NCBI GenBank assembly: GCA_000934665.2
Contig: JYFJ02002702.1
Coordinates: 1-52,470 of the forward strand
Source: Catajapyx aquilonaris
Taxonomy: Eukaryota
Length of the DNA: 52,470 nt
Direction of reading: 5' to 3'
The notes under the pieces were generated by a model. The model saw nothing but the letters and a program-made list of their open reading frames with translations, made no database searches and was not told the origin of the DNA. Both the position numbers and the translations under genes were made by a program. Shown in pieces: positions 6,511 through 29,900 of the stretch (its first letter is position 1; every line of letters begins with the position of its first letter).

Positions 6511-7059
6511 ATAGCAGCATGTGCACTGTTGGGCTAAAGTTCAAGGAAGTTGTAGGCCGAGTAATTACACCACAGTGAAATATTTGTCACACCCGGTGGG
6601 AAGTCGTTAGTTATCACTCACCAAACAGCATAAAAATATGTTAAGTCCTAACCTGCCATAACATACGTATATGTTATTAATTTATTGTAAGTGCAAAAAC
6701 GTGATAAATTCATATGAACCCACTGTACTGCAATTGATCCTTTCCTGTTTTCATGTCTCATAATATTCAGTACTCCCACAAGATCCCTTTGCGACACAAA
6801 AGTTGCTGAAAATGGAATTACGTAGCAAGCTGTGAGTAAGATATGTTAGTTCATCAGTCAATTATTGTAGTCATTTACTTTGATGCGAGGGAGCCAGTCA
6901 TTGTTTAAAATGTTCTGCGTCTTTGTAACCAAAATATAAGTAGCACCTCTAAGACCTTCCTTCACGTGTCTGTTGATACATTCATTGGGAAAAAGTCACT
7001 AATTTGTGGACATAGGCTGCATCGCATTGATTGATACTTCTCCTTTCCAGTGATACACA

Positions 7060-9549
7060 TCAGTTCCAACTTGTAGGCCCCAAAGGTTTTAAAATCTTGC
7101 TCTGTGGGTTGATTCCTGACCTCAAGGTTACTCCCTGCAACATATGTGCAGCTCCCTGAAGCACCTTTTGGATTTTTGGCCGGAGCATTGGCTGGCCTTG
7201 ATGCTGCCCATTCTTGGTAGTCCTTCTCACAACTACTGTAACCTGACTCTTTGTGGAAGGTGAGTTTAATTCCTTCATCTCGTTTTGGTGTTCAGAGACT
7301 AATCTTGCTCGCTTGGCCATGTGTAAGGCAAACCTCTGAACAAAATGAGAAAAATATTACAGTGTTACGTAATTTTGGTGAATCGTAAGTGCTTGCTATT
7401 ATTATGGCCTATTGTGAGGTATCTTAGACATATTTTCGGGAAGTATTAAAATGCCATACCTCCTTTGATTTCTGGACAATTTGTAGCATACTTTTAATAT
7501 CTTCCTTTGAGCGTGACTTCTTCATTTTATTAAGGTGCTTCAGCAGTGTCTTGTAATGTGTAGCATCCACTCTGCTTCTGAGTGACTCAAAATAGTGGAA
7601 CCTCTGAAAGATAAATGCAATGTGTCAGGCCCATAGTCAGATGGAGAAGCTGAGAGTGGCAAATGGAAATTAAGCTTAGGTAAAAAATTGTACCATAAAT
7701 GAGTTTTTGAAGTTGGTATCATTAAGTTTCATTGCTTCAAGCCATGTTGTAGTTGCTTGTGTTAGATCTCTTTTGAAGAGCCAGTAGTAGCAGCCCTTGA
7801 ACATCAGCATGGCAATTGCATTCTGAGAGTGATTTTGTGATCCGTATTTATGCATAATCTGATCCAGGCCAGGATGTGGGTCAAAATTCCTCCATGCTGC
7901 CAATTCCATATCCAGAACACTCATCTCAGCAGGAAAGTTACCATGACTGCCGCTGCATTCCACTGCTTTGAAAAACAGGCCTCTCGCCTTCTCATAATCC
8001 CATACTTTCTCATGCCAAGGCCTAGGGTCTGTAGGTCTTGGTTCATTATACTTGGAGAAGAAGATACCTGCCTTGTAGTTGACTATTGCGTCATTTGGAG
8101 ACAACTTGATAGCTGTCTCAAAGCATTTCTTGGCCCTATTGACATTACAGTATGGGTAAGGAAGCTTCATGAAGGATTCACCACATTTCGTGTTGACCTC
8201 AGGGCAGTTTGGTGACAGCCTTAGTGCCTGCTGTGTTAGTTGTGCTCCCCTTTCAATCAAGACTTGGCTTTCTCGTGTATAATGATAATCAGAAGTTACA
8301 AAAATGTAGCGGGCCTTGTCACGTAAGGCCTGGGAGAGTGCCAACAAGTGGGTGGCATTTGCATTGCTGAAAGAGGGCATCCCATAATATATTGTTATGA
8401 AATTTTTCCAGGGATTAATTTTTTTTTACATTTTTCTGTACGTGGCAGAAAATTGTATTACTGTCCTAATTTTACTGTTCTCTGCTACAATGCACCATAG
8501 TGTCATGAAATAAACTTTGACACAGTACAACCTTGTCAAAAATACATGATAATAATGGGCCACCCTCTATAAAGTAATCACAAGTTCTACAGATGTGCCG
8601 GGAATTGTACACAATTTGCCACAAGCATTAATGGTACTTACCACTCAGCCAGTTGCACAGCCTTTTCCAGAGCCTCTATTTCCTCATCACTAGGATCACT
8701 GTGCTTTTCTTTGGAATACCTGATTTGTGCCAGTGATATTCCCACCATGTAATTCCACTCTGGAAATTTAGGGTCTATTGATGCTGCCTTTTGGAAAATC
8801 CGAAGGGGGCTGCTTCGCGCAAACTCCACCAGGCAAGCCGTTTTCAGGGTCAAAATCAATGCCTTTGATTCTGCTGACAAGTCCTCATACTGGTCCATTC
8901 TGCACAGTATTCTTGAAACTTGCTCATATTTCTGGCACCGAAATAGCAGGAATGATCTTAAACTATCCAACACATAAGTCATCCCACATTTTGTGCCTTC
9001 ACATAGATGACGCCATGATAAAGGACAATACCACAGGGCATCAGGGCCATCTCCATTAGCTATGTGTTTTGCTGCATCAATGTAAACGCCTGCTTTGCTA
9101 TAATTTGCATTGCCAATACTAGCATACAGGTAGGCCAGCAGAGAATTACGAAAGAAATCCTGCCATGATCTCTGTTTAAGTGTGTCCTTCAACATGTAGC
9201 AGTCATTTTCCAGATTTTCTATGACGGGAGCGATTTGTTCCTCATATCGCTTGCATGATGGTAAACGCCAGTTAAAATGGCAGTGCAATTTCTGGAGGTT
9301 CTTGTGCAGAGCTTTGGGGTTGATCTTACATGAAATGTTGGAATGCAGTTTGAGGTGCACCTGATTGTGCTTCATATTCCGTTTCCTTTGCTCCACTTTT
9401 TTCTCTTGCATTTGGACACCCTCATGTTCAGAGTAACAGCTGTGGAGCACTGTGAATGCAGGTCGCCACTTCCTTTTCTTCTTTGGCTTATTTCTTTCAT
9501 GAAGCCTCACACTGTCACCTGATGATCCTGTTTTGCAAAATGCTGCCAT
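7060..9549 (-). CDS. IFIT-like tetratricopeptide-repeat protein, copy A (apparently intact, ~666 aa)
   Basis: Exons 9549-8642, 8366-7694, 7603-7460, 7335-7060 (2001 nt, in frame, GT-AG). NLQKLHCHFNWRL resembles IFIT LEQLRCHFTWEL; NSLLAYL resembles HNLLAYV; CPEVNTKCGESFMK...RAKKCFETAIKLSPND resembles IFIT CPEIDCEEGWALLK...RAKACFEKVLEVDPEN. An acceptor just upstream of the ATG (~9556) implies a 5'UTR intron. Confidence 0.8.
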
Positions 9550-11024
9550 TATGCCTAGAAAATATCACATAATAATAATATAATTAACTTGTATGTCACA
9601 GCAATACAGTCACTGGAGAATTTCCAACACTTGAATGAGTCAGTCAGAGTTTATGGCTCACTTATGAACCATTTCCAGTCATAAACTGTGTATCATGAGA
9701 GTTGGATGAGAGGGGAAGCCTTGCAGACTTACATTGAGCCAACTGTATGCCATTGTAGATTTGTAGGGCATAGATTTCTGTACGTCTTATGTACAAAAAT
9801 TTCACAGATTGGAAACTCGTAGAATTCTTCTGAGAATGTGGAAAATGGGAAGAACAGACTAGAGCACTGTCCCGACTTCCCAAATCAGTCAGTGCCATTT
9901 AAGAGGGGTGTACGTATGGTTATCCAAATCACTTGATTCATGTGATAAATTTTGACCTTCCCACCCATTCTCTTTAGTGTGTATGAGTTAACAATTACAC
10001 ACTTCACTTCGAATTGCCAGTTTATTTTGTCCCTCTTCACAAGGCATTTGTAGACATTCCCGAGGCATTAAAATGTTAAAATGTAAGTGTTCATGGGTTG
10101 GATAAAATTACAAATATTGATATACCCTTTTCCATTGGGACTTCAGCTGGTTTTAATTTTTTTTTAAACAGCCTTTTGAGGTGCAATAACCCACACAACT
10201 GCTTGTAAGTTATGAATGATGGTAGTGATGGACTTGAACCATAGATTCATTTCAAATAGGTGGTGCATGTACTCAGGGTATATTCTGTGACTCTTCCATT
10301 TTCAGGTTCTCCGATATGGCAAAAATGCAATGATAATAGCATAATATATATCAGGGTCACGATAAAAGTAATGCTCATACATAGTGGTCACAGAGGTGAA
10401 CCACCAACTCCTATGTTAAAAAAATTTTAAAAAAACTCCCGAGTTCTTTTTTTGAGGCTATACCTTGTCTTCACAAAAAATTATCTCCACTTTTTTCGGG
10501 CTGGCACAATTTCCTTATGGCTGTACCCATCAGTGTGATGGTTTTTAAACACATAAAGTAGACGTTAGGATGCCTGTAGGATGTACTGTCCTAAAAGTTA
10601 CTACTAGCCCAGAAAAAACAGCTACGTGACCAACTGGCACACAGTGCATCAGTTGGAGTGGCCAAAAATTACAGTTTAGTGCTGCACATATGCAGAAAGT
10701 ACCTATAAATAGTAGTTGCGCAGCTGTGCTGATAACTGAAGCACAGATAATCTATATGGCATGAAACAACAACCTGCTGCTAAATATTTGTAAACTTTGC
10801 ATCCTATGTGTGCCTCTTCTGACTCAGGTGAACTTGATAACATTACTAACAAGTAATGCAGGGTATCACCTGATGAATACCCCTATTTTTAGAGTAATAT
10901 GCCAAACGGATTATAATTTGTATTGTACAATACTTTTTACAGTGACCTTGACAAGAACATTCCTTCAAATTGTGTTTTGCAATAGACCTCTTCATTTAGA
11001 TTAAATGTTAATATTTGTAAAATT

Positions 11025-11268
11025 GGGCCGACAAGGTGGCCGAGTGGTTAGCGCCACAGCCTTCCACCTCTGAGGTCCCAAGTTGTGTGGATAGAGTTTC
11101 GATGGGTTCTCTCCCTGTTCTCGTGGGTTTTCTCAGGGTCCTCCCATTTCTTCCCACTATCAAAATCCATCACAGCAAAGGCAATGATTAAAGTCGGGTA
11201 TTTAAAAGATGATCCCTAAGAGGCCCAAGGAGGTCTATACGGGGTATCCATTATTATATTATTATTAT
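11025..11268 (+). mobile_element. Degenerate tRNA-derived SINE with V/Meta-type conserved core and (ATT)n tail
   Basis: A-box GGTGGCCGAGTGGTTAGCG. Core GTGGGTTTTCTCAGGGTCCTCCCATTTCTTCCCAC resembles the V-/Meta-SINE central domain. The tail is attatt-rich, the B-box region appears deleted, and no clear TSD is seen. Confidence 0.75.
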
Positions 11269-11623
11269 ACAGTATTTATAAAAAAATGACTGACTCAGAA
11301 TACTGGGTCTCATACACCCCATTGGCATAAAAATAAAAATAATTACATTCCAATAATTATATTGCTTCCTGCACTTGTCATTTGAAAAAAAGCATTTTTA
11401 ACCATACATTTCAGTTGATTATCTCCTTTGCAATTCCATACTTCACTTGCTGATTCACAGTATGCCAATATTTTGCACCAAAAATACTTTGTGTTGTGTG
11501 TGTGCGTCGTTGGTGTGCATGCACTGAATAAACCTAATAATACCATCACTAACTCATATGTGAATAATAATGTTCTGTCATCAGAAGGCAACTGTTATTC
11601 TATGATATGTTACTTAAATTATT

Positions 11624-11671
<48 letters not shown>

Positions 11672-11730
11672 AATAATAATAATAATACAGTTATTAGCTC
11701 TTGGTGGTTGTAGTAGTCACAGTAGTAGTA

Positions 11731-11792
<62 letters not shown>
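11624..11792. repeat. Compound microsatellite (AAC)n(AAT)n followed by (TAG/TGG)n
   Basis: Direct reading of 11624-11686 and ~11712-11792. Confidence 0.95.
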
Positions 11793-11998
11793 AGGTAGTA
11801 ACTTTAGTCAGTGAAAAAGTAATAATAGCAGACTTACTTGTACACGGGAACAGGAGTGAGTGTTTTGGTGGGTCTGGAGCACGGTCTGGAGCTCATGACA
11901 CAACACATCAGGTAAAATAAAAAGGTGTGGCTGGGGGGTGGTGGGCTTCCCAGGGGGATACTCTGGGCCAGTGGCCTTGAGTAGGATGGCTGTCGTGG

Positions 11999-12009
11999 GG
12001 GGAATCCCC
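11999..12009. promoter_or_regulatory. NF-kB/Rel-type site GGGGAATCCCC upstream of IFIT-like copy A (also upstream of KCTD9-like)
   Basis: Exact motif; ~160 bp upstream of a minus-strand GTAAGT donor at 11837 (putative non-coding first exon). Confidence 0.6.
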
Positions 12010-12879
12010 TCAGATTTTGGTATAGCAGTATCAAGCTGTCCCTCTGCAACTACAGCAGATTGGTTGACCCCCACATGTATTATAGCCATTTTCCAGCCTA
12101 TTTTAGTTAATTTTTATCTTGATGTTTTACTTGACTATAGTTAGTGAAAAAAGACCATGATTCATGTTACCGCCATATTGACAAAGTATTCCTGTATATT
12201 AACATCTATCCAAACCAAGGTTTTAGTAGGGTTTTCGCAATATGTGTTATGAGATGCATAATTGCCGTGGGTATTAACCTAGCCAGCAGCACGGATTAGA
12301 TTTTGATTTTGGCTATGGATCAACATACTACCTATGTCAGAATTTTTAGTGACTTGAAGTGAGATTCAAACTAATAATTAAGTTCTATTCCATTGCAAAT
12401 GTAACACATGGCTCAGGCTGAAAAACATTTATCTGGAACTGCATGAGTCATCCAAGGGCTGCGGCTGGAGTCACTATGCACCGGATGAAAGTGCAATGAA
12501 ATATTGCACAAAAATAAGTCCAAAGTGTGTCATCATTATTTGAGTATTTCCCAGGGCCAGCAGCAGTGCGTTCCCATGGTCCGTTCAATAACCCCTGAGC
12601 ACTGACCCCCTATCTTATCTTAATGGTTTTATATTACCTTTGTGATTAAGTCTTCTTCAGCTGCTGGTGATGGTCGAATTTCTTCTTTTTCCCAGTTAAG
12701 CCATTTTCCCACGAACAAAATGCAACTGTCACACAATCCTGTGGTGATAAGTATATTCTGGACCAATACCAACCGTCCACGTATTACTTGCTCATGCATA
12801 CTTGACCTGAAGGGTTGTCCAGTTTGTGCTCTGGAGCTGCAGCAGACGGTTCAAACATCTGCACGTTTGAAGACCAGCC

Positions 12880-14902
12880 ATGATGACAGTTGTGCTCTTT
12901 TCAAATGGAAACTCAGTGGGCGGAAGGGTAAGAGATCTGTGGAATACCAATGTTGATACATCCTGTTTTATTTACATATTTTTTTTAAAGATGGTGAAAA
13001 TGATGACTACACCTTTTCAAGACTTCCTTCATTACATTGGCTGCACCATGGGATTCCATGCCAGGAGATTATTCACATCAGACGGAGATGAAATTCAAGA
13101 TAGCAGTGAGATCAGGTGAGTCTAATACTTCTCACCCGTAGTTGTTAACAAAATGTGGCCTGCAATTTCAGAGATGGTCTTGTGCTGCATGTATCCAGAG
13201 GTGAAGACTTCATCCCTCCATATTTAAACCTAGGGGAACCTGACAAGTGGGTCAAACTTAACGTTGGAGGAAAGGTGTTCGCCACAACTTTGGCCACTCT
13301 GATTCAAAAGGAACCCAACAGCATGCTTGCCAAGTGAGATAGCAATTTAAATTAATTTGTTGCTGACCCAAATCCAAATTGTTGATTCTCCAACAGAATG
13401 GTTACTTTTGACACCAATGGGAGCGGCTGCATGACTCTTGGCCAGGTGGACCAAGATGGTGCCTACCGAATTGATCGCAGCCCTGTCTATTTTGAGCCAA
13501 TCCTCAACTACCTCAGATATGGACAGCTCTTTCTGGACGAAGGGATTTCTCCAGCAGGTCACTACAACACCTGATATTATGAACCGCCTTATAGCCTCAT
13601 CTTGTGTAAATGTAGCTTCACGTGGCCTTCACTGTCGGGTTGTTTGGGCCACTTTGATTGGGATCCACCAATCAATTATTGGTGGACCCCAAGCACAGAT
13701 GACAAAAGGCAAGACAACCATACACATAGGAATCCAGATTAACCTGTTTATCTGTTGGCAGGTGTCCTGGAGGAAGCACGTTTCTTCTGCATCGAGTCGC
13801 TGATTCCAAGGCTGGAATGCATGGCTCAGGCAACACTTACTCGTAGAGACATGGTCAAGATCTTGAGCTTGAGAACTCTCAATGTTGTTTTGACCTGGAA
13901 AGGGCTCCAGTTACCAGGTATTGACCTCTCTCGAGTATATCTCTGGAACATTGATTTCACAGGAGCCAATCTGGCCTACTGCAATCTAAGGGAGGTCAGG
14001 ATGAGGGACTGTACTTTACGACAAGTGAACCTCTCCTTCGCAGACATGACTGGTATGAGAACAGCAGAAGAATATGCATGCTTCAAAATCTGAACAATCT
14101 GGAAATTATTTGCAGACTAATGGATTGTGAAATTTTGTTGCCCTTAGGAGCTATATTAGTTCAAGCCGATTTGTCCACTTGCCTTATGGAATCAACCATA
14201 TTGGATAAAGCAGTTCTAAAGGATGCCAACATGCAAGTTTCTACACTGAGAAATGTCCATCTGACATCTGCGGACTTATCATGTGAGAACTAACATTAAT
14301 TTCTTCGTACTGAATACTCCTTTATTGTGAAATACATTCATGCAATGTTATTTTCGTAGCGGCCAACCTGGAAGGAACACTTCTGGATTTTTGTGTGATG
14401 GAAAATGTGAACCTCACTGAAGCAAATTTGACTCTGGCCAGATTTGTCAACTGCAACTTGCTCAATGCAAATCTGAAGGGAGTAACCGCACAGGTAATCA
14501 GAGAAATGTTCTTTTCTCAGAAACTTCACTTTTGAAACTCCAAATCTCATGAAATTGAAAATTTATTGGAATCCAAGGACTAAAATAATGCAGTCTTTCA
14601 TCATTATATTAGAGGATAATGTTTCCATACCTGAAATTAACTGTTTAAAAATTACTGCACATTAATAATGATAGTAATGAACAGTTACTAACCACTACAT
14701 ACATGTCAGTTAAAACACACACTCCTTTTAAACATTCCCAACCACGAAGTAGCTTTTAAATCCGCAACTTACAATCTCTTGTCTGCAGGGATGCGAATTT
14801 GAATCATGTAACCTGAACGGGTTAATAGTGGATGTATTTGATCCACGTCTCCAGCAAACCATGTCCTGCACTGGTGTTAATATGGTAGTAAAAACTATTT
14901 AA
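12880..14902 (+). CDS. KCTD9: KCTD9-like protein (KHA/ubiquitin-like N-terminus, BTB/POZ domain, pentapeptide repeats), ~389 aa, divergent
   Basis: Exons 12880-12927, 12991-13115, 13172-13333, 13397-13557, 13762-14052, 14148-14282, 14360-14493, 14789-14902 (1170 nt, in frame). MMTVVLFSNGN, WVKLNVGGKVFATT..KEPNSMLA, GAYRIDRSPVYFEPILNYLRYGQL and GVLEEARFF, followed by A(N/D)L-type pentapeptide repeats. Confidence 0.88.
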
Positions 14903-16049
14903 TTTTTAAACTAATATTAAAGTGTGCCCTTTTTAAAAGGTTCTCTCTTAATTATAGCAGCAGCAACAGTATTAGCAGCTTCCGAAGATAGCATGGTAAA
15001 CCACTTCTGATTTTAAAATTATAGTTATGCAACCTGCTTTATACGGCATACTTGTTCCAGTTGATTTAACCTAAAACTTTAAACTTGCAATGAATTCTCT
15101 CTCTGCAGATTTCACTCGCTGCATATTAATGTTTCAAAAAATATGACAGCCACAGATGCTTTATTTCATCTAATTTTTCTGAATGAGATATAAAAGTAGA
15201 AAAAACTGAAGCAAGCATACAGTTTTGGAATTTTATGCTACTGTCACCAACATTGTGCATAATTCTGGCAAGCTTGTAATTTGCCTCACCGACCACATAT
15301 TCCAAAACCATTTATATTCCAAGTAATAAAAAGGTGGAAATGATTTGTGCTACATTATCATTCCCATTTGGCAGGCCCCTTAGGCTTGGACTTTGGGGCA
15401 TGGGCTCCCATCCTAGTTCCACCGTGAGTGTGAGACCCACCTCGACTCTTGCTCTGCTGAAACGTGGGCGCATGTCTCTCCTTCGGCTTACTCTGAGTTG
15501 GAGGGACATGGATCTGCTTGACAACTTTCAGCAGTCGCTGCAACTTTTCCTTATTTTTGTGGACAGACAAGCCATCCACATATTTCTGTAGGCAACCAAC
15601 AAGCTCCCTGTGCTTTTCAGCAGTAGATTTTGCTTGTAATGATATGTAGCATCGGTATCTCTAGGGAGGGAAATGGTACATCTTAATACATATTTCACAA
15701 CGTATGCCTGTCCCCTTGATGCCAGTGCAAAACCATACGGAGGCCTCGACGTATGCCCCAGGGTGATCATAAGGGGTAGTTTTTAACTGGGAAGGTCATA
15801 AGCACATTGGACTTCACCTCCGAGGCCACCCTTGGCTGCAGGAGGCGAAGAGGACTTGGGGACATTGGCCCGCGTTCTAATCATGCGGAATGGGGTGTAA
15901 ACAACTCTTCTGTTGAGTTGGCGGGGAAACCGTCCTTTCCTTCTCTGAAGGTCAGAGGGGTCACATCGCCCTCTCCCCACTGCCACCTCCAGCCACTGCA
16001 TGCAATATGCTCCCATGTTACAGGTATGCCAACATTGTATAGCCATAAT

Positions 16050-16133
16050 TATTTCAAACGTAACTACCAAATCAAAGTGTCACTCCTATGGAAAAGTATT
16101 TCATAACCCGAGCAACGCCAGGTATCCTGCTAG
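16050..16133 (+). mobile_element. Helitron-like 3' terminus (5' end not defined)
   Basis: CCCGAGCAACGCCAGG hairpin-like motif (16107-16122) followed by CTAG|T at 16130-16134, the typical Helitron end. Confidence 0.6.
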
Positions 16134-16238
16134 TAATTACTAAATGAAATGATTATGCTAGGCTACTGTTTGCACAAAGTGAAGTTTATAACCTCACACT
16201 AAAAGTCAAGGTGCAAATTGATCGAATGTAACCATCAA

Positions 16239-16431
16239 GGTGCGTTTAATGTGTGCGATTTGGCAAGCAAAGCGGAGCGAAGTCCCCGTCAAGCGAAGTA
16301 ACCAATATTGTTTGAGGTGAAAGACGAAAGTAACAATCAATTTTCGCCTCAAACAATACTGGTTACTTGGGTTACTCAGCGATGTTACCGCTTGGTGATG
16401 ACTTCGCTCGTCAAATCGCTCACATGTAAAC
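16239..16431. mobile_element. Fold-back MITE-like element (imperfect palindrome)
   Basis: Nested inverted matches: atgtgtgcgatttg/caaatcgctcacat, gagcgaagtc/gacttcgctc, aagtaaccaatattgtttgaggtgaaa/tttcgcctcaaacaatactggttactt. Confidence 0.65.
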
Positions 16432-17475
16432 TCTGCTTCATTTTGCTGCAATTAACTTACCACAAATGAGTTGCTGAAGTTGGTCATGTTGATGTCCATT
16501 GCTTGAAGCCAAGCCTCAACAGCTAGATCCATATCCTTCTTGATGAACCAATGGCAGCAGCCCTTGAAGACCAATATGGTGATGGCATTCTGATTGTTGT
16601 TTCTCTTCCCATACTTGTACATTATCTGATCCAGGATGGGGAATGGATCGAACTGATTCTCTGTGACAAGCTGCATGTCTAGATGTCCCATTGCAGCTGG
16701 GAAGTTGCCTCTGCTTCCACTGCATGTCATTGCTCTAAGATAATGCTCCTTGGCCTTGCGGTAACTGTGCTCATTATTCGCATAAAAAGCACCAGCCTTG
16801 TAGTTGACAATGGGGTCATCTGGAGACATCTCAAGCGCCTTTTTAAAGCAGGCCTTGGCCTTTTCGTTGTCACAAAATGGATGAGGCAACTTCATGAGTC
16901 GGCACATTCCATGTTGATCTTGGGACAGTTTGGAGAGAGTCTCAGGGCTTGGTCTATCAGCTTTGAAGCCTTTCCATTTAGTGTGTGACTTTCTTGTGTT
17001 GGTCCAGATGCATGAAAAATGTAACGTGCCTTATCTCGTAGAGATTGCGACAACGCTAGCATGTGAGTGGAGCTACCATGACTAGAAGAAGAAAAAATTA
17101 AAGATAAATATAGGAAATCTCTTTAGTTGTATCATCAATAGAAAGATGATAGATGCTGTATTAAGTCTAAACATTGGTGATTAACTTTGCAAGAACTGTG
17201 TATTTTGCATGGTGAATTTTAATTGATGAACCTACATAAATTGTGTATTTTAAGAATGTAGTGCATAACATCAGCATGACCAAACATTACCTTTAATAAG
17301 CTTATCTGCCTTTCTTATGAATATTCATTTGGTGCAGCTACACTAGAGAATCAAATGTGCTCAAGGTGCAGTTATGGTGGCTTACTAATTACCCCTGCTC
17401 AATTCCCACAATGACAGAGTCATATTTACACATTGTCATGGCCATGTTTTGAGATCACCTGGTTAATATTGTTAG

Positions 17476-18610
17476 CAGAGTTGGGTAGTAACTGAGTAGA
17501 AATAACGCGTTACTAGTAACTAGTTACTTTTTGAGTACTTTTCCCGGTAACTTCGTTACTTTTGTGCACAAGTAACTAGTACTTGTAACTAGTTGCCTTT
17601 AAACAGTAACTTTGTAACGAAAGTTACCAAGTTACTTTTCCGTGCAGTGTTTGAAAAGCACCTATTTTAAAGGGACACTCCACTCAAAAAAACAAGTTTG
17701 GCTCTAAAAATCGGGCAAAAAAATCCTGCATCCGAAGGTGCAATCCGTTTTTCGCTACGCGGAACGGTAATCCCAGGGCGAGGGGTCAAAGTGGGGAAAT
17801 TCAAATAGTGCGCTAGAAGCTGGCCGTCCCCCAGCGACGCCCTCGGGACCTTGGGAACTGGAGGGCTGCTACCGCCTGCCCCTGCGCTTAGGCCAATCCC
17901 AGAGCGGTGCAGCCCTCCAGTTCCCCTGTTCCCCGCGTGGCGGCACCGATCATTAGCAGACGACACACTTGGACATCTCGCCCTGGGATTACCGTTCCAC
18001 GTACCGAAAAACGAATTGCACCGTCGGATTCAGGATTTTTTGCCCGATTTTTAGACCCAAACTTGTTTTTTGAATGGAGTGTCCCTTTAACATGCAGATG
18101 ATTCATTTATTTGGCGACAGTGGGACGGTTCCCTCCGCGCCGATGGCTACTCCGGATTATGTCTGACTCAAGTCCGGTGAATTAAGACGGGGATGTAGAA
18201 AATCCGGACTTCTTCGAGTTCCATCTCTGGCCGAAAGAGACACTCGATCCCACCCTCCCCACACAAAAGAAGGGTCGCGTTTGCGGTTGACCAGAGAAGG
18301 GGAAAGCTTACCGATGCAAACCATGAAAAGCAGCTATTATTAAAAGTAAATCGAGGTTGATCATTTTTTTTGACCACGGTGTTATGTTGTATGATTCGTA
18401 TTTCAGGGAGAAATGGGGGATCCCCCATCTATCTACAGCAGCGGTGACAGACCACGGAAAAGTAACTTCATGAGTAACTGTAACTGTACCTGTAACTGTA
18501 ACTAGTTACTTTTTGGTCAAAGGAACTTGTAACTGTAACTAGTTACTTTTTTGGACTGAATAACTGTAACTGTAGCCAGTTACATTTCAAAAGTAACTTA
18601 CCCAACTCTG
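17476..18610. mobile_element. Non-autonomous hAT-like DNA transposon with (GTAACT/AGTTAC)-rich subterminal repeats
   Basis: TIR CAGAGTTGGGTA at 17476 and TACCCAACTCTG ending at 18610, with many gtaact/agttac repeats at both ends. An 8-bp TSD is not evident. Confidence 0.8.
17671..18086. mobile_element. Kolobok/T2-type MITE nested in the hAT-like element
   Basis: TTAA TSD at 17667-17670 and 18087-18090. AGGGACAC...GTGTCCCT termini. Imperfect TIRs of ~110 bp (17671-17781 versus 17977-18086), plus an inner inverted repeat (~17846-17876 versus ~17903-17932). Confidence 0.88.
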
Positions 18611-18964
18611 CTGATATTGAGGGTAAGGGTGTCATAAAATGTTTAATTATTATTAGCACTGGGCCTCCCTAAAGTGTTACACCATTACACCCAATAAACA
18701 CGGAAACCCCTCGAGTTTATACAGGCCCTTTCCAAGCATATGCAGCATATTACCATTACCTGTCACATTACAGCTTGTGCACACATTTTTTGGGCATTGC
18801 CTGTAGTAGGCACCTGTAGTATCAATTTTTATAGAATAAGCTCACCTCATTTTTCAAGTCAGTGCATCTATATGCAGATACTCGCCCAAATACGACCAGA
18901 CTTGACATGGAGCGATGCACATATGATTTGTCATGCCCAATGCAACAAGAGGTAGAGGAGCGGA

Positions 18965-18975
18965 GGGGAATCCCC
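18965..18975. promoter_or_regulatory. NF-kB/Rel-type site GGGGAATCCCC upstream of IFIT-like copy B
   Basis: Exact motif; ~120 bp upstream of a minus-strand GAG|GTGAGC donor at 18845. Confidence 0.55.
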
Positions 18976-20094
18976 CCACCCACATATTTTATATTCAGTT
19001 CATCAGTTGGTTATAACTGTTATAATAACAGATATTGCTAGCAGTTTTTAGAGAGGCAGAGGTATCTGGCTGCTTGTCCTTGTAAAACCTACATAATTAT
19101 AAGGAATTGTTTTCATGCAGGATTGCCAAATGAGAATACATTTATGACCAAACCAGGCATTGCTTAGTTATTATTAGCACACAGACAGCAGAAAGGAGGC
19201 GAAAAGGGGGATAAGGGACTCCTTGTTTGTCAGCAGTTTGCTTGAACTCAATTGAACAGGCTCCATCCCATACACTGGGCAATCAGTCCTTGCTAACTCA
19301 AGCTGACAATGTTGTGTGATTAAATGCTAAACACCATGCTGCCTAATAACTATCCTTGATCTCAATGGTCTTCCCTGTTGCTTTTGTAGTAATGACAATC
19401 ACTAATCACCACAGTGATCGTGGATAACACTTTTGAATTTTTCCAGACTTCTGCTTGCATAGTAATAATCAACCCCAGAAAAGTGCAATAAAAGTGACAA
19501 TTCACTTCTTCAACTACTGTAGTTATTATGAGAAACTTCCACTAAATATGATCATACATGAATGTGTGTGGCAAAAGTAGGCTAAATCCTGAAAGAAATT
19601 CCTTGAGTGGGAAAATATTACCGAGCGGCACTAATGATAGTTTATGAGTGACATATGTATTGTTCCTAATGTCTTTAATCATAAAACTACTGGATTTTTT
19701 TTAAAAATTAAATCTGCAACTTTGGGGCATGCATGAAAGAAATCAATACTATTGCAAGGTAATTTTGCTTGCTTTCCATCCTTTCAATTACATACTTCCT
19801 GACCTCAATAATAATGCATGATGCATACTCTTTTACAACCATGATTTATTTAAGAATGGGATTCCAAAATGAAACATTGTTCAAGTCTCTGGATCGGCCA
19901 CAAAAATAAAAGTTAAGAAATCAAGAAAACATTAGTTTCTGACTGCTACAATACTCAGTCCATCTCCATAATAATTACGCTGTGTGATCTTGTGTATATT
20001 ACAAGTCAGTCCCAATCACAACAATCCCTTAAAATTCATCATTTGAACCAGATGAGAGTGGACATTACGTAAGCAGCACTTATTCCAGTCCCAC

Positions 20095-22408
20095 TTAGCC
20101 AGCCCACCCCTTAGATTTAGCTCCTTTCGACTTGGGTACATGGGGTCTTGGTACACCTCGACTCTGCCGGGGTCCGGATCCTCTTCTCTGCTGAGGCGGG
20201 GGGAAATGTATTTCCTTGACAATGTCCAGTAGGATCTGCATCAGATCTTCTTTGCATGTGTTGGACACTTGATCCACTTCTTTCTGTAGGCGATCAACCA
20301 GCTCCTTGTGATGTTCGGCTGTACATCTGGGCTGGAAAGAGAGATACAATCGATGTCTCTGAAAGAAAAATAAAAGCATCTCCCATTAGATAAATGCTGT
20401 ACTGCCATTGCCTATATTCAATTTTCAATTACATGGGTTGAGTTACAAATGGAGTGGTTCGGAATTGGGCTGCCCACTTGTAATGAAGATCATAAAGATT
20501 TTATATTTGCCCAACAACAACTCGTAATAATGTTAACCCATTAGAAAGCTTATGGCAGCATCTTGGCTAGCTGAGACTTAGCATAAGGACGAGAAACCCT
20601 CCTGGCCATCAACTCACCACAAATGTATTCCGAAAGTTAGCAATGTCAATATCCATTGCTTGAAGCCAGGTCAAAACAGCTTGAACCAAATCCTTCTTGA
20701 TGAACCAATGGCAGCAGCCCTTGAAGACCAATATGGTGATGGCATTCTGATTGTTGTTTCTCTTCCCATACTTGTACATTATCCGATCCAGAATGGGGAA
20801 TGGATCGAACCGATTCTCTGTGACGAGCTGCATGTCTAGATGTCCCATTGCAGCTGGGAAGTTGCCCCTGGTTCCACTGCATGCCACTGCTTGCTGATAT
20901 AATCCTTTCGCTTTGCGATAATCCTGCTTGTTCTTCGCATAAAAGAAGCCGGCCTTGTAGTTGATAATGGGGTCATCTGGAGATATCTCAAGAGCCCTTT
21001 TGATGCATTCCTCTGCCTTCTGGCGATTGCGAAATGGTTGGGGTAGTTTCATGAAGGCATCAGCACATTCCATGTTGATCCTGGAGCAGTCTGGAGAGAG
21101 CCTCAGGGCTTGATCGACCAGCTGGAAAGCCCTGCTGTTCAGGAGGCGACTTTCCTGGATTGGTCCTGACTGTGCGAAAATGTGGGTAGATTTGTCCCGC
21201 AGGGCATGGGACAGTCCCAGCATGTGACTGGAGTTTCCACGACTGGAAGAAAAATTGACATGCACAATAAGTTAAATGTTAGAATCAACCTTTGAACAAG
21301 GATGACATAACTGAGTCATATTGGCAGACATGAAATGCTTAAATGATGTAATAGCATATTGATAAGTACACAGATATTATGTAACGCATGCTACCGGTAC
21401 TATTTAAGCGTACGTTATGAGAATTTGGGCTTGTCTTTCTTAGGAATGAAATAGTGTACTTCTCTAAACCTTTATACATACTCTTTTGCCAGCTTCACTG
21501 CCTTTTCCAGGGCCTCGCACTCTTCTCCTGTTGGATACGTGTTTTTTTCTTGAGAATACCTCGTACGGGCCAGTGTATTCCCAAGTTGGTACCACCATTC
21601 TGGGCACTCTGGATCCAGGATTAGAGCTGTTCGAATGGCCAGGAGAAGTTGGTCTCTAGCTGCCATGTCCACCACACAAGCTGCCCTCAGCCTGGAAACA
21701 ATGACCTTGGACTCTGTCGACAGAGAATCATACTGGGGCATTCCATCAAGATGCTGAGATGCCTCGTCATATTTCTTGGCACGGAACAATAAGAAGGATT
21801 TGATGCAATCAGAGACGTAGAGTAGCCCAGGTTTATCATCTTTTAGCCCCTTGCTGCTCATGTATTGCTTCACTGCATCCAGTAAAACTTTTGATTTGTT
21901 CATACTGCCAACCTCACCGTACAGATTTGTTCATACTGCCAACCTCACAGGCAAGTAACACATTGACGTGAAAGTCCATCCATGACTTGCATTTTGATTG
22001 GCTGCTCTTTCTCTCAATAATCATGATCTTTTCATAAATGAATTGCTTCCGAGGAATTTCCCTGTACTGCAGTAAATTCCAGTTGAAATGGCAGTTCAAC
22101 TCCTTACTAAGGCGGGCCCTTAATTCACCATTAGGTGAAGGCAAACCTTGGTCAGTGGATGAGTCGCTTTCAGAGCTTTCATCATCGAAGTTGTAACCCT
22201 TGTCCTCTTCAGAGTCTTCAGAGTCATTGTCCCAAATGCTCTTCACTGGAGATGACTCGTCTGCCTGCACTCTTCTCTCACTTCCGCTGTCCCTCTCCTG
22301 GTCATCTTCGGAGTCATCATCCCAGTTATCTTTAACTGAAGGCTTGTCCTGCTGGCCATTCGTGTCTTCATCATCTTCTTCTTCAACTGCTTTCCAAAGT
22401 GTTGACAT
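20095..22408 (-). pseudogene. IFIT-like copy C with acidic N-terminal extension; frameshifted by a 31-nt tandem duplication (otherwise ~594 aa)
   Basis: Exons 22408-21482, 21242-20618, 20358-20095. Contains LSKELNCHFNWNL, NVLLAC and TPR motifs, with the same intron phases as copy A. A 25-nt direct repeat (21893-21917 and 21924-21948) shifts the frame, giving TGA at 21914-21916; removing 31 nt gives 1785 nt in frame. Confidence 0.78.
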
Positions 22409-23222
22409 ATTAATGCTGAAATGAACAGCTGGGTGAGAATTTGTATTACGCTGATAAGATTTAATCACTTTACAACTGATATATGGTATTTCTGTAATTT
22501 TCAACAGCAAAATGGAACAGGCACACACAGGTGCCAATAATATACACTAATACTGTAGTTGTAACTTCCTATTATAATGTAAATGTCATTTGCAAACAAG
22601 TACACATGTATGTACAATATTATTTCTTGAGGCTTCATTTGGTGAGGTTCCACATTTACGTAAGACCTTTTTAAAAATGACTTTAAAATTACAAATTGCA
22701 TAACATTGCCAAAAAATGAACATAACAAAATATTCAGAACAGTAACACTTCTGAGCCTTCTTTTGATTTTAACCCTGGAAACCGTGCCGTGCCGTGCCTA
22801 CGAGTATTACGGCAACCGTGCCGTGGGGTCTTTTCGGACCCCACCATATTTTAATTTTTATTAATTATTATATGATACTTTTCAGTGTATTGACTATATA
22901 CAATCGCGCGGTACCCGGGCGTTGGCAAAGGTCAAAAATGTATTTAAGTTAGTCCAACTTGAGCAAGAATAAAGGTACCATGCCAGTAGATGCCCCCTGT
23001 GGGAGGTGCACTACACACACACACACACAAAAACTACTACTACTGTACCTCTTGGCTTTGTTTCAATGCATTGTCCTCTCTAGTCCTCGTGCTGTGCAGT
23101 AGCTGAGTCCTGCCTCTCTGCAACCTCAGCAGTCAGCAGTGTCTAAGTCATCTCTCAACACCTAGCAATGTTTCCAAGTGAAAGTGAGGGTCGAACCAAC
23201 AGGACAAGAGATGAGGTGTCGT

Positions 23223-23233
23223 GGGGAATCCCC
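23223..23233. promoter_or_regulatory. NF-kB/Rel-type site GGGGAATCCCC upstream of IFIT-like copy C
   Basis: Exact motif; ~175 bp upstream of a minus-strand GAG|GTACAG donor at 23048. Shares the TGTCGTGGGG flank with the site at 11999. Confidence 0.6.
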
Positions 23234-23949
23234 ACTGACCTTCAATTCCCCCAGCTCCTCCTCCACCCAGCTGTTGTTTATTTTGATCCCCTCTGGGCCC
23301 TTTACCAGTGACCTCGCCTTTATCGGATCCCAAACAACCTCAGACTGTGCATATATATGTTGGTATGGCTCCGTGCTCAGCAAGTTACAGGCCTAACCGT
23401 ACGTACTCTCACTGGACACATAAGTCGTTATCTATGGACATGGTGACATATTCCAGTGGATTTATGTCTAGTCAGATTATCTGTACTTGTTTTAATTTTA
23501 TGTGCCATCCATTCACAACTGCTGACATGTACAGTACACTATCTTAGCGAAAAGTTTTATGCCGATGCAGTCATTTCGTAGGGTTTAAAAAAAAAAAAAA
23601 AAAAATGTGGCCTTGATCCTTGAGATATGCAGGAGTGGTGATTATTATCACCCGGCCACATGGCCCGGCGCGCTATTTCTGTCAGGTGATACCAGAGTTT
23701 AACCCCATGTCGAAGGTGAGAACCCACAAAAGTGTAATTTTGCTTCTATTTGTGTCCACAAAACTATGTAGATGTCGACGCATTCCTTGTGTGGATAGAA
23801 TGATACAAACCTAGCTGGACTGGAAAACTTGCAGTTTCCTCCACTCCGCAACCCTCAATGAGGCAATAACGTATGATATTGAACAGAAAATTATTTCCCA
23901 TCTTGTAGGTGAAATTTATTTATTACAAGTGTTAAATCCAACAGTGCCA

Positions 23950-26900
23950 TTATATCACAACCAGAATCAGTGCAAATGAAGTGAGTGCCAAAATGGTCGC
24001 AGAAAGGGTCGTTGCTGAATTGACATCTGAAACACCTGGCGAAGAACGCTCAATTAGTCAACTGGCAAATGATTTGACGCTTGCCACTTTATAATAATTG
24101 AGCTCACCTTGCTTTGTGTCACAGTGACGGTATGGCAGCTTCGTTTTACGTTTTGGATCAGGTGTGGCACCAATGATTTGTATGGATGGGGATTGCAACT
24201 CGCCTTGATGCAACAGACGGACAAAGTCTTGCTCTAATTTGTTAGCATTGGGACCTGCAGATAAAATTATATGTAATTATATTAATCACCATGTCGCACT
24301 GGATGCGTAATGTTTGTGACACTCGAACATCCCGATCACATGATTCATCTGAAAGTCTTTCACTGTAGTCATGATTTTAGTCCAGATATTTAAAACATAA
24401 ATCTTAGTTTAACAACTGGACTATTTACCTGTAAAGTGCAGCAAAAACTGAACGCATTTCCCATCTTGAAGAACTTTAGTTTCTCGGTTATCCACTGTCA
24501 GCATCCATTCTGGAATTCCCATCACGCTGCGAACATCTTTTAAGAACTCAGACCTTTAAAAGAGGTACAGTAGTCATAATTGCTGTCAAAATAATAATGG
24601 TGGTACAACTTACTCGATGAATCTTGGCGGTTTGTTGATGTTGGCATATTTGACGATGTCATTGTCAGGTAGAATTGTTGCACAGGCAAACTTTTCCGGT
24701 GCTCCACCTTCATTGTGAATTATTAATGACCTTCCTATCACAGATGCTGCTCCACCTGAAATTAATAACCACTAATTAATTATACAAAAATGGTAGGCCT
24801 ATTATAGAATTCACAAATGACATCAGTGGTGATGTCATTTGATACTTATGAAGAGGAGAGTAGATTACTCAGTGGAAGATTTGGGTCGTTAAAAACAAAT
24901 CGGGGTCCTCCAATCTCAATAGGCCCCAATCTTCCGGAAATATCACCGACGTCACATCGCAAGGGATTATCGGGTTTACATTCCTTGTCGTAATATTCAA
25001 ACTGCAATAGACACATTGTAGTGTAAACCTGCCGCAATGAGAATTTCGTAGCATTAACTTACATCAGTGGGTTGTGCCAACTGGATGAAGTATGGGTTCC
25101 ATCTAAATCCGCCAGCAACACAACGTGTGTTGAACTGTTTAACTGTGGCATCGTGAGACACAGGGTTGACATACACAGACCATTTGTGGTTTCTGGTCTG
25201 CAAGAAGAGTTCATTTACGGTAGGCTATCACATGTGAGTCCATGACACAACAAGCTTCTCTTTGGATGATGCTATCCTCGATTGTGGAGGAGGAATCCGA
25301 GTACTTGTGAACGGGATTGAGCTACATGAAACTTACGTGGTTTTTGTTGTTAGGACCTGGATGCTTTAGATTGACTTCAATAGTTGTGTCACTCGTGCTG
25401 CCATCATGGTACACCAGTTGGGTCTGAAATTTTTGGATTATTATTCTTGCATTTGACTCACTACAAGCTAACTCACCATGCGGATATATCCCCATGCGTA
25501 ACCTTGGGGGTGGTGAAAGGAAGCAATAGCACGGTATTCATGTGCTTCAGAAGTAGCGTACCCTCGGCCAATGGTAGCACACATCCACCTGCACTTAGCA
25601 TCATTACTAATTGCACAGGTAAAAGGAAATTTATTGCATACCTGGCACCCTTTTCCTTCTTGTGCACCACAATGCTTCTGCCAATAATACTGTTGAATCC
25701 ATACAACATGAGGTTGGTGTCATTGTAATATTTGTGCAGTTCCATTAGGTTGTCCAGCATGCCATACTTTCCACTGAGGTCACCCATTTCATACTCATCA
25801 GCAGAACCAATGGTGGGTACAGGGCTTTCCTTCACGTTTACGTTGAATGGATTGTAATGGCCAGACACCGCTGTATCTTCACAGGGGAACACCAGATCGA
25901 CAAGTACTGGATACTGAAAATGTCATAAGTTAATAGTGTCGTGAAGTGCAGACGCAATCTGAATCATGCAGGCATTTAAATTTTTCCTCCACCAGAGTTG
26001 GATTATGTAATCAGTTGAATTTATTATTTTATGGCACAAAATGTTCTTACCAAGTGCACATGGTAACCTGACGTAATGCCTTGAAGACCTTGCAGTTTGA
26101 CCTCTGATGACACAAGAGCTTGGGAATTCTCCTGGATAAATTCCAGTTTGCCGCTTACTGCAGGCGGCACACCATTTCCAAACCAGTCTTTGACAACAGC
26201 TTTTCGACGATACAGTCTAAAAATTCTGAAACCACAAAATGTCACTTGTGTCCTTGTGTTTTCCAGACATTAATTCTAATACTTACTGCGCACATGCAAG
26301 TCGATCTCCTCTTGCCTTGGGTCCATTATCCTCATGGATGACAATAGATTTTCCAATAATGGAGTACCGTCCTGATAGAGCCAGATTAGTATCGGTGAAC
26401 ATCTTCTTGGTCTTCCCCATGTACTCCCTAGTTCCAGCCACCTCCAGTCGGCCATGTCGACTGACCAGGTCTCCTGCTTCACACCTCAACTGGTTGTCTA
26501 AGCCACATTCCTTGTATTCATTTTCCTGGAGGCTCACCTTCGGAAACAATGTTCGGTTCAGCACTGAGATGAGTGCCATTACTTATTACACTAACATGCA
26601 TTTACTTTCATATACTTATTGTAGAATCATTACGCTCATTTGTGGAGATTCTTCCACAGATATTGAAAAGTTTTGAGCCAAAAATGTTACAAAATCTGGA
26701 CCTGCATTACTGTTGTTGTTGCTTTATTGAAACCATTCAATTAAAATAATGTAATTGACGAAAATTAATAATGTGGACAGCATGCATTTTCTACATTTCT
26801 ATAAATTAGACAGCAATACCTTGTATGGATTGTAATGACCTCCGGCACTGAGGCATCTTCCGGTCCAGTTGTAATAGTCCTTTCCTGGTACGTCGACATG

Positions 26901-29900
26901 GACATGCCACCGGTGGTTCTCAGTCCCATTCTTGGACCCATCACTGTACACAAGTGACTCCACGACAATGCTGGTCTCTGAGAGTGGATCATCCAACTGT
27001 TGCGTGAACACAATCCTTCCAACCAAGGGGTACCTGAATGTCACCACTGCACTGATGGTTTCCACACTAGACTGAATGTTGCCACACAGCCACCTTGCAT
27101 TGTCCACTGGCTTGTGCATGACAATGGCCCTGTGAACAATGCTGCGAGGTCCAAACAGGGGCATGTTGGTGTCCAGATAATATGCCTGGAGGTAATGCAA
27201 GCCTTCGAGGCTTCCATGCTTCCCACTGATGTCGCCCAATTCATATTGGTCATCAGTACCTTCTCCTGGAGGAGGACTTTGCATAACATCCCAGTTATAT
27301 GGGTTGTAGTGACCTGCAGTTCTGGAGCATACTGGGTCATCCTGGGTCATCTTGGGAGGAACTGGAAATTCATGGACATGGTACAGGGCAGCACCTTGGC
27401 GAAGGTTGTTCACGTCCACTTGGATGCTGGTTACGTCAAATGGGCTGTTTTGCTTGAAGGTGATGTAGCCTTTCACTCCATGGCCTTCCAGGTATGATGT
27501 GGCAACCTGGGAAAAACACGTAGGTTAAGGTTTTTTTTTCTTTCTTTCTAAATCTCATTGTCCACGTGCAAAAAAAGTCAGAAAGGAAGGCAAGCTATTG
27601 TTACAGCCTCAAAGTGTAGAAGTAGAAGCTGATGCCTTTGAATACCACGTGCCTTTGGGTTATTTCCGCACAGCATGCACTCTCTATATAACTTTGTTTC
27701 ATTGCACCTTGAACATGCTGTTCAAATTTGCAATGCTTTTCAACTGCTAACTAAGCTACGCATGACTATACCTACTGCATGCCCTTGACATTATACTGTA
27801 TTCATTACAGGCAATATTTCACATATTGTTGGTTTCAAACATCTTCATAGAGCTAATATTTAGTGAAATTAACAGCCAGTTCAATGGTTGCTAATTCAAT
27901 ATACATTACCCTTCTTAATTTGCATAATTAATTAGCTCCTACTGCTCACTACCAGCCCTATCACCCACTCTCTCTTAAATTTGGACCTAATAAAATATTA
28001 TTCACGGAAGTGCTACATATTTTACAATTCTCACAGTGCACCATCATTTCAACTTTTATGGAAGTGGGAGCATACAGCCATCAATCATTCCCTGCATTTC
28101 ATTTCACCCTTTGTAGGCTAATATTACGTCAACTTCCGCGTAACATACTCTAATAAGTATGTTACGCTAACTTTTACTTGAAATCTATGCTCTGGAAACT
28201 CCAGTAATTTTCTAAAGTGAAAAAAAAGATCCAAGTTCCAGAAATAGCATTGCCGAGAAACCTCAAGAATGTTTCCTTTACTTCTCAACACGTAAAGGTG
28301 ACCCTCACAAATCTGGATTATAATGTGCTGTACTAACCTTGGGCTTCATTTCCCTTATCCTGGCGCACGCAAAGATGTTTTCCGGATGCACCGGATCAAA
28401 CAGCACGACATAGAGTGTTCTGGCCGGATTCTCATCCGGAAGTAGCAGCGTGGGATCTGAGAAGAATTTTTTGGAGAATCGTCCCTGCCTGCTTCCAACC
28501 CGGATGTTTCCAAGCTTGCTGGTCAGGTCGCCTATCTTGCACTTGTCCGGTTCCTCCGAGGAGCATCCGGAGTCTTCTCTGGCGTCCGGATCGTATAGGA
28601 TTTGAAGGAAATCGCAGCTGGACTTCTCCGAGTCCCCATCCACGTCCAGGATGTCCGTCACAAACACCTGCCATTTGTGGTCTGTGGCAGACGGCTTGGA
28701 CAGCGAAGAGTGGTATATATTGGAGTAAATGGTCGTGTCCACATGCGTACCGGTGGCCAGTGAGCGAAAGGTCAAGCTGCCGGACACTGGGTGAAGGAAA
28801 CGAGCCTCCTTCGTCTTCACGGGACTGTCCGCCTGACGACACAACAACAATGCAAAAATGGGATGCAGAAAATAAATCAAGACAGGAAGTAATAATATTC
28901 AGTTGTCAACAGCACCGACCACATCAGAAGTTAATTACCATCAGGAAGCAAGGTTTTTATCGTCCTGTTAAAATATTTACGACTCCAACGATAACAATGT
29001 ATTATCACTGAACACAAGATTACAAATTTGGCGTGACTAAAATATACCTTTTGCGGTATAATGACAATGCAAATGTAGCTGTAAATATTAAAATTACAGC
29101 ATGCGTGTCGCTCATTGAAATGGCAATAATGCACATTTCCTAGCAGATTCATGCATATTTTTAAGTACTGTACTAACACATAGGCCCTACCGCATGATGA
29201 CAGCTATGTGCGAGTGAGTCATTTATTTCTATATTTTTGTTAATTTTTTTTATTATTTAATTGGGAGAAATCTGCGAGCTATGCCGCCGGCTACAGTTTC
29301 ACATCCCATTCGATATCATATCGCCGCGGGTTAATGTAGCAATAACTTAAGTGGGTCGATGTGCCAGGAACAATAACAGTACACGCATGAGCAGGCACAA
29401 TAGTGTTGCATCTGGGATAATTTTTTTTAAACGCACCTTTCTCTATCAACAGGTCAATTGATTAAACCCTTCGCGGTGGTCTTACCGTAATGGTACCGCA
29501 GGCAGTGACTGATCCTTGAAGAACCAGAGTATGACCCCAGATCGACTCTCGACCAATCATCCGAAGCTCGGTGGTCTCAAAGGTCAGAGGTCCCTCGCCG
29601 CCATCGGTCAACTTCAGCTGACCCAACACATCGTCCAGTTTCAACAGCCTGGTAATGACCAATTAGACTATTAATAACCGCGACATTTTTAATAAAATTT
29701 ATTGCGTCACTATCGTCCAAAGTCCACATGCACTGACCCGTTGACCTCAAAAATAAAACGTCCGACCCTTTTGCATGGGATGGGACAAATCACTTTTTCC
29801 CATCAACTTTTTTTTTTTCTCCGAGTACGTGTGATGTGTGTCATTTATTTCCGGAATTAACTCACACAATTGTAGTGCACTAAAAGCGAAAAACATTTAC

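Follow-up and report, generated by a model that had tools for sequence, protein, structure and literature searches.

The 52,470-base stretch of Catajapyx aquilonaris contig JYFJ02002702.1 analyzed here (the window) carries three minus-strand paralogous genes in tandem, copies A, B, and C, which encode tetratricopeptide repeat (TPR) proteins remotely related to the IFITs. Each copy has at its 5′ end the same 11-base sequence, GGGGAATCCCC, a kB site of the NF-kB type. We lean towards the explanation that this 11-mer is an ancestral Rel/NF-kB element which selection would have retained 5′ of an arthropod IFIT-homologous family, and which a Relish-like dimer would read, giving the genes immune inducibility. 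The sites suggest, in other words, that infection signals may turn the three genes on. Coordinates of the features are collected in Table 1.

Identity and uniqueness of the motif

A scan of both strands of the window found exactly three matches to GGGGAATCCCC. One hundred dinucleotide-preserving shuffles gave a mean of 0.01 matches, and none of them reached three. An earlier reading of the letters alone (the sequence-only reading) had reported the same three places with no fourth, and had expected about 0.01 copies per window; both figures held. When one mismatch was allowed, a single extra place appeared in the window, GGGGGATCCCC at 18415-18426, which is repeat-like because it is covered by mismatched, high-depth contigs. 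In the sense of the genes, all three sites read GGGGATTCCCC.

The motif is letter for letter the kB site of the major histocompatibility complex (MHC) class I gene H-2K, GGGGATTCCCC, the classical p50-preferring site of 11 bp. A preference of p50-type subunits for the MHC-kB site is stated in a preprint (bioRxiv 10.1101/2022.05.03.490500). In vertebrates this site belongs to an enhancer read by p50/p65, whereas here the sequence is from an arthropod and its reader is predicted only. The first ten bases of the motif also fit GGGGATTYYY, which the legend to Fig. 1 of PMC9496462 gives as the consensus of Relish Rel-68 homodimers; the window holds three matches to this consensus, which are exactly our sites, all in minus-strand, gene-sense orientation. 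The identification of the motif as a classical kB element in the sequence-only reading is therefore borne out by its identity to the MHC-kB site and its fit to the Relish consensus.

The general consensus GGGRNWYYCC is fitted by all three sites on both strands. It matches 10 loci in the window, nine of them between 6.2 and 23.3 kb, and these loci are not independent: they include the three homologous sites, both arms of a foldback element, one locus in repeat-like DNA, and two within a coding exon of copy C. A perfect kB-consensus 10-mer in the coding exon of copy C, GGGAAATTCC at 22053-22062, lies over codons for YREIPR and is probably a chance match.

Compared with the Relish-type kB elements of insect immunity (IMD and STING-Relish targets in Drosophila), the sites show the same consensus fit in all three copies and in gene sense, and they likewise lie at the 5′ end of what are here putative immune effector genes. 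They differ in that site C is intronic, some 90 nt past the likely start, and in that no neighboring GATA site was found. An IFIT-homologous target family was not found in the Drosophila literature searched, and literature searches for GGGGATTYYT, and for GGGGATTCC with Relish, found nothing.

Conservation of the motif among the three 5′ regions

The motif is the only sequence of 10 or more bases common to the three 5′ regions, whether ±300, ±500, or ±1000 nt around the sites are compared. An 11-mer shared by chance was seen in 0 of 200 shuffles at every span, and shared 10-mers had shuffle means of 0.00-0.03. A three-way MAFFT alignment of the 5′ regions left the motifs themselves unaligned, and the regions were then aligned locally, two at a time. 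For each pair of 900-nt 5′ regions, the highest-scoring local alignment was centered on the motif, with a score no better than the shuffle maximum. Residual matches persist just downstream of the motif (CCTC.A.CTCTTGT between B and C; CCACGACA between A and C), and TGTCGTGGGG is common to copies A and C, offset by two extra G in A. The sequence-only reading had described the flanks as largely diverged apart from TGTCGTGGGG at two sites, in agreement with these scores. Because the best alignments center on the motif with short residual homology in the flanks, we regard the sites as homologous positions descended from one duplicated ancestor.

Synonymous divergence sets a scale for this conservation. 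Between A and B/C the proportion of synonymous differences (pS) is 0.72-0.76, which is saturated, and between B and C it is substantial (pS 0.38; synonymous divergence dS 0.52). Ratios of nonsynonymous to synonymous divergence (dN/dS) among the copies are 0.09-0.24, so the genes were under constraint. If per-site identity is taken as about 0.62 between B and C and as about 0.3 between A and the others, our own arithmetic puts the neutral survival of all 11 positions in three copies at about 1e-8 per promoter position. The motif is thus conserved beyond neutral expectation, and with synonymous change saturated between A and B/C, it appears to have been held by selection. A search for related loci in metagenome contigs gave 261 pattern matches from alignment A3, none of which was confirmed.

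Relationship of the genes to IFITs

Pfam searches with single sequences returned generic TPR families only. A phmmer search against solved structures returned IFIT5 and IFIT1 (E ~2e-3) alongside designed TPR proteins. Against 1.84 billion representative sequences, HMMER gave 87 matches with E no higher than 1e-3, of which the best had about 30% identity. Twenty of these 87 were looked up, and they proved to be "uncharacterized" proteins from Orthoptera, Phasmatodea, Blattodea, Odonata, Hemiptera, and the ostracod Darwinula, together with three unnamed ones; a word search with the TPR exon gave no longer relatives. These matches place the TPR genes in a pancrustacean family that has no name.

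We built a profile, A2, from an alignment of seven relatives with the exons of the window. It matched IFIT5 (3zgq) at E 1.7e-15 in one collinear stretch, with profile positions 18-443 on residues 13-451 of 482, and it matched IFIT1, IFIT2, and IFIT3 at 1e-11 to 5e-14, in each case through the N-terminal 120 residues. Designed consensus TPR proteins were matched at profile positions 247-332 only. The N-terminal IFIT-family motif L-x-C-H-F-T-W is recovered in the alignment, where leCpFtW of the profile aligns to LECHFTW of IFIT5; copy A has LHCHFNW as the corresponding residues, and copy C has LNCHFNW.

Structure prediction and language-model features point the same way. An AlphaFold2 model of the N-terminal 223 residues of copy A reached a predicted local distance difference test score (pLDDT) of 81.9 and a predicted template modeling score (pTM) of 0.80. 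When it was compared with the PDB, ranks 1-11, 13, and 16 of the matches listed were IFIT5 or IFIT1 chains, with query-normalized template modeling (TM) scores of 0.54-0.63 over about 234 columns; the IFIT1 chain 5udl_A (rank 14) scored only 0.20, and other TPR proteins scored 0.30 or less. The nearest entries in an ESM Atlas feature search were IFIT clusters (0.94-0.96, with 192-211 of 256 features shared), a likeness that serves as a lead only because the recognition value of the query, 2067, is below the 2300 mark. From the profile, the language-model features, and the predicted fold, we accept a remote but real homology of the arthropod genes to IFITs.

Liu et al. (2013; PMC3688568) dated the origin of IFITs to jawed vertebrates, rejected invertebrate BLAST hits, and tied IFIT genes to interferon via promoters with interferon-stimulated response elements (ISREs). 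Set beside the vertebrate genes as presented there, the arthropod family has full-length protein homology, including the N-terminal CHFTW-type motif, and it likewise appears to have non-coding or nearly non-coding first exons and to form a tandem lineage-specific cluster. Unlike the vertebrate IFITs in that account, the arthropod genes have a kB site instead of a nearby ISRE core and several coding exons, and their proteins have extra acidic N-terminal and basic C-terminal tails. The literature searched contained no paper on arthropod IFIT-like genes, the "IFIT-like" papers found being all on vertebrates, and the literature examined, in the portions available, contained no link between IFITs and Relish.

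State of the three gene copies

The three paralogues were delineated by comparing exon translations with the window by tblastn. Copy A looks intact, and it is the sole copy to do so; further small 3′ exons follow its TPR exon. Copy B is a truncated pseudogene fragment, reduced to its TPR exon, with a stop and a frame break, and its last exon. Its N-terminal exons could not be traced in the interval 17068-18845, even with E values up to 1 allowed. A foldback element lies where these exons would be expected; its inverted arms are 58-87 nt long, and more repeat-like DNA occurs at 18294-18617. Together these two stretches of repeat-like DNA (17664-18093 and 18294-18617) carry three extra kB-consensus matches, two of GGGACACTCC and one of GGGGGATCCCC.

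Copy C has all its exons. Its first coding exon is put out of frame by an insertion of 31 nt (21918-21948), made up of an exact 25-nt direct repeat and a 6-nt spacer. As assembled, the frame meets a stop at codon 165 (21914-21916), and with one repeat unit removed it is open to the end of the exon. The insertion may be a genuine lesion, or else a polymorphism or an error of assembly. The exons downstream of the frameshift are still covered by spliced contigs. The statement in the sequence-only reading that the site stands upstream of "every IFIT-like copy" is accordingly right in that there are three copies, each with a site, and too generous in that B is a fragment and C is frameshifted.

Acceptor AG dinucleotides are present just before the start codons of copy A (AG 9556-9555, ATG 9549-9547) and copy C (AG 22417-22416, ATG 22408-22406), and donor-like sequences occur on the minus strand at GTAAGT from 11837 (A), GTGAGC from 18845 (B), and GTACAG from 23048 (C). 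For copies A and C, the sequence-only reading found such signals consistent with non-coding first exons. The sequences are where it placed them, but no RNA joint among those listed supports the use of the three donors or the two acceptors.

The proteins differ at their ends. The N-terminus of copy C (window 22150-22400) is strongly acidic, with repeated Trp-acidic motifs (NWDDDSEDD, IWDNDSEDSEED) ahead of CHFNW, whereas that of copy A is instead basic and Lys/Arg-rich. W-acidic motifs are ligands of other TPR domains, and self-binding of copy C through them is conceivable. The tail that the last exon of copy C encodes at 20096-20358 is basic and Gly/Arg/Lys-rich, and the insect-type relatives P0017 and P0041 end in RG/RGG-rich sequence; such tails would fit an RNA-binding role.

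Position of the sites relative to transcription

One public run (X1), of unrecorded kind, contains part of the locus. Twelve of the 15 joints listed from its contigs are canonical GT-AG and the other three are in repeat-like stretches, so we take the run to derive from spliced RNA. Its contigs confirm the copy C introns at 21481-21243 and 20617-20359, and one contig defines a further intron of 78 nt in the 5′ region of copy C. This small intron encloses kB site C, 6 nt after the donor, together with AAGTGAAAGTGA, a tandem hexamer of the form (AAGTGA)2. Among the joints listed, none ties the contig to the copy C coding exons; its depth of 3.5 is closer to that of the copy C contigs (7.8-8.8) than to that of the contigs of the upstream gene encoding superoxide dismutase (SOD)-like domains (37.9).

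The sequence-only reading had proposed a transcription start just downstream of each site. For copy C this model fails because transcribed sequence, of at least 81 nt, is joined upstream of the site across the 78-nt intron that holds it; for the other copies it is unsupported. Bin depth suggests that the shorter side of the intron contig is the upstream one, which would reach about 23320, and TATATAT at 23357-23351 lies 31-37 nt upstream of that point. No TATA-like box was found between any site and its proposed donor. A scan of 22900-23600 for promoters and terminators of bacterial type gave nothing useful and is irrelevant to a eukaryote.

Table 1. Features of the window bearing on the three kB sites, with the evidence for each.
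Feature	Position	Strand	Evidence and remarks
kB site A	11999..12009	-	Exact match, fits GGGGATTYYY; 5′ of copy A, which looks intact
kB site B	18965..18975	-	Exact match, fits GGGGATTYYY; 5′ of truncated copy B
kB site C	23223..23233	-	Exact match, fits GGGGATTYYY; 5′ of copy C, starts 6 nt into the 78-nt first intron
Copy A first coding exon	8642..9554	-	ATG 9549-9547; 303 codons; donor GTAAGT from 8641; LHCHFNW
Copy A TPR exon	7694..8380	-	Open reading frame; donor GT at 7693
Copy B TPR exon remnant	16452..17068	-	In-frame stop and frame break, in penultimate exon
Copy B last-exon homologue	15358..15660	-	Open reading frame; direct repeat D5 with 20272-20360
Copy C first coding exon	21482..22415	-	ATG 22408; exon end from joint 21242/21482
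Copy C TPR exon	20618..21242	-	Joints 21242/21482 and 20358/20618; open reading frame
Copy C last exon and 3′ untranslated region	19887..20358	-	Encodes basic Gly/Arg-rich tail
78-nt GT-AG intron (GTCAGT...TGCTAG)	23162..23239	-	Joint 23159/23238 (cut +2), CT..AC on the plus strand; one contig, depth 3.53
Putative exon 1a of copy C	23240..23320	-	Predicted extent, from 81-letter shorter contig side and bin depth; contig cannot show start
Putative non-coding exon 1b of copy C	23049..23161	-	Acceptor 23163-23162 seen in RNA; donor 23048 predicted
TATA-like TATATAT	23351..23357	-	124 nt upstream of site C; consensus match only
IRF-type tandem hexamer AAGTGAAAGTGA	23176..23187	+	Copy C only; 36 nt from kB site C; single exact match in window
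Foldback element, like a miniature inverted-repeat transposable element	17664..18093	.	Where copy B N-terminal exons expected; two kB-consensus GGGACACTCC matches
5.4-kb intron of BTB/pentapeptide (KCTD9-like) gene	7258..12693	+	Joint 7257/12694, GT..AG; pentapeptide matches

Other regulatory elements near the sites

Arthropods are not known to have interferon. Neither a STAT site nor the ISRE core GAAANNGAAA lies within 250 nt of any site; in the 5-25 kb interval GAAANNGAAA occurs only at 5730 and 14551, both unrelated positions, so that the ISRE linkage characteristic of the IFIT family is not seen here. Over the same 250 nt, no GATA, STAT, AP-1, CRE, FOXO, HSE, or DRE motif is common to the three copies. 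The sequence-only reading had set Rel control in place of control by JAK-STAT or ISREs. The lack of STAT sites and of GAAANNGAAA within 250 nt of the sites agrees with this, but the exclusion was worded too strongly, given AAGTGAAAGTGA in copy C.

Interpretation of the conserved element

In the reading we prefer, the three 11-mers would represent the remaining core of a single ancestral cis-regulatory element that was passed on through tandem duplication of an IFIT-homologous gene, and selection would have kept the 11-mer while its surroundings drifted. A dimer of the Rel-homology (NF-kB) family, Relish-like by sequence preference, would bind the double-stranded DNA near the transcription start and raise transcription after immune signaling. 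In copy C, where the site lies about 90 nt past the likely start in the first small intron, it might act as a promoter-proximal downstream or intronic element; alternatively, it might work at a second start, one absent from the available RNA. An intronic enhancer is also where the original kB site is found, and a promoter-proximal downstream or intronic position is compatible with kB function.

Binding by a Rel protein, inducibility, and an upstream pathway (IMD, Toll, or cGLR-STING) are predictions from the motif. The sequence-only reading had assigned the cluster to IMD or STING-Relish signaling; this assignment we infer by analogy only, and nothing here separates it from Toll-Dorsal. In Drosophila, STING signaling activates Relish and induces antiviral genes, according to PMC10917227.

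Several results weigh against this explanation. On the side of the proteins, the relatives P0008 and P0003, searched singly, found no IFIT at E 0.1 or better, which is why we call the IFIT relationship remote, and the Foldseek E values of the IFIT structure matches are 0.03-0.3, with none at 0.001 or below. With B a pseudogene fragment and C frameshifted, a present-day function can be claimed for copy A only; no X1 contig was seen over the copy A exons or over sites A and B, an absence that says nothing about expression. On the side of the DNA, the degenerate consensus GGGGATTYYY is by itself no rarity, since three matches were obtained in 5 of 100 shuffles. Site C is transcribed and spliced out, and thus departs from the classical arrangement upstream of the start. 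The distance to the nearest upstream TATA-like box varies among the copies (75 nt in A, 18 nt in B, and 124 nt in C). GATA sites accompany many Drosophila immune kB sites, and none lies within 50 nt of any kB site here.

The same element could be read by a different DNA-binding protein, such as a lineage-specific zinc-finger protein or another palindrome-reading dimer, and its likeness to a kB site would then be coincidental. The link to Rel proteins is one of sequence likeness, and the position of the sites relative to TATA-like boxes is not fixed. However, 11 of 11 positions match a high-affinity kB site, the Relish consensus is fitted as well, and no match to the consensus of Su(H) or EBF was seen. 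We therefore regard another reader as unlikely.

A little less probable still is that site C forms half of a composite kB and IRF module, with elements like the positive regulatory domains PRDII and PRDI, and that Rel and IRF factors jointly drive the cluster. Crustaceans and other non-insect arthropods have IRF genes. In the interferon-beta enhancer the PRDII kB site adjoins the PRDI/III IRF sites, and copy C resembles this arrangement in having tandem AAGTGA hexamers 36 nt from its kB site, within the same 78-nt intron. It differs from that enhancer in that the pairing occurs in one copy only, is intronic, and would act on an effector gene rather than a cytokine gene. AAGTGAAAGTGA occurs once in the 52 kb, in copy C only, but its one shuffle control, in which a mismatch was tolerated, gave a match in 46 of 100 shuffles. 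We therefore treat AAGTGAAAGTGA as a candidate IRF element, and as a lead only, whose relevance would depend on this arthropod having an IRF.

The conserved unit might also be a hairpin in the primary transcript, in which case a GGGG/CCCC stem in copy C, lengthened by its flanks, would cover the donor of the 78-nt intron and might modulate its splicing. We consider this decidedly improbable. The core is invariant and so offers no covariation to count, no Rfam family was matched in 5-25 kb of the window, and copy A has no donor adjoining the motif. The 11-mer does fold as a 4-bp stem of -4.5 kcal/mol, which is weak, and the differing flanks lengthen it in each copy (-7.6, -13.3, and -10.2 kcal/mol with 5-nt flanks), but flanks that are G-rich on the left and C-rich on the right can arise by slippage. 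Site C is transcribed, and in the fold of the copy C intron the donor GUC pairs with GAC.

Finally, a functionless origin of the three copies as a neutral promoter relic, by short-tract gene conversion or from a dispersed repeat, is very hard to credit: two of the three genes are damaged and repeats like transposable elements lie close to sites A and B, but synonymous sites between A and B/C are saturated, a conversion tract would need to be about 11 nt long given flanks at shuffle level, and no repeat family of the window takes in any of the three sites.

The retention of an ancestral Rel element is a narrower proposal than the most novel one, that true arthropod IFIT homologues are switched on by a Rel/NF-kB factor, for example downstream of cGLR-STING-Relish. 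We hold this wider claim to be possible, though doubtful. If it is true, RNA-end sensors of the IFIT type predate interferon and jawed vertebrates and were originally wired to NF-kB, and ISRE control is a later vertebrate acquisition. A promoter prediction alone would be ordinary and of a known kind. Its value here comes from the pairing with this gene family, which matches IFITs by profile, language-model features, and predicted fold, whose relatives are unnamed in databases, and in which the one 5′ element conserved is a perfect kB site. Should the genes prove to be Rel-induced, they would offer a testable case of an "interferon-stimulated" type of effector under NF-kB control in an interferon-free animal, and would bear on how antiviral programs were rewired during animal evolution.

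Genomic neighborhood

Copy A and site A lie wholly inside the 5.4-kb intron of the KCTD9-like gene, antisense to it, and the 3′ exons of copy A may overlap the exon of that gene at 7051-7257 on the opposite strand. A pentapeptide exon matched only repeat proteins of bacterial type, and a FHIP/FAM160 exon matched Priapulus at 38% and a butterfly at 32%, so that these exons by themselves mark the sequence as ecdysozoan and arthropod-like. Long trinucleotide microsatellites, (TAC)n/(CAC)n and (TAT)n/(AAC)n, occur at 11702-11796 and 345-430, and one of them starts about 40 nt past the donor-like GTAAGT that follows site A. The gene just upstream of copy C, on the minus strand at 24032-28898, encodes several Cu/Zn-SOD-like domains (Pfam Sod_Cu, E 2.5e-17 and 4e-6); its product may be a Cu-only SOD-repeat protein. 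Its introns are very short, at 60-174 nt.

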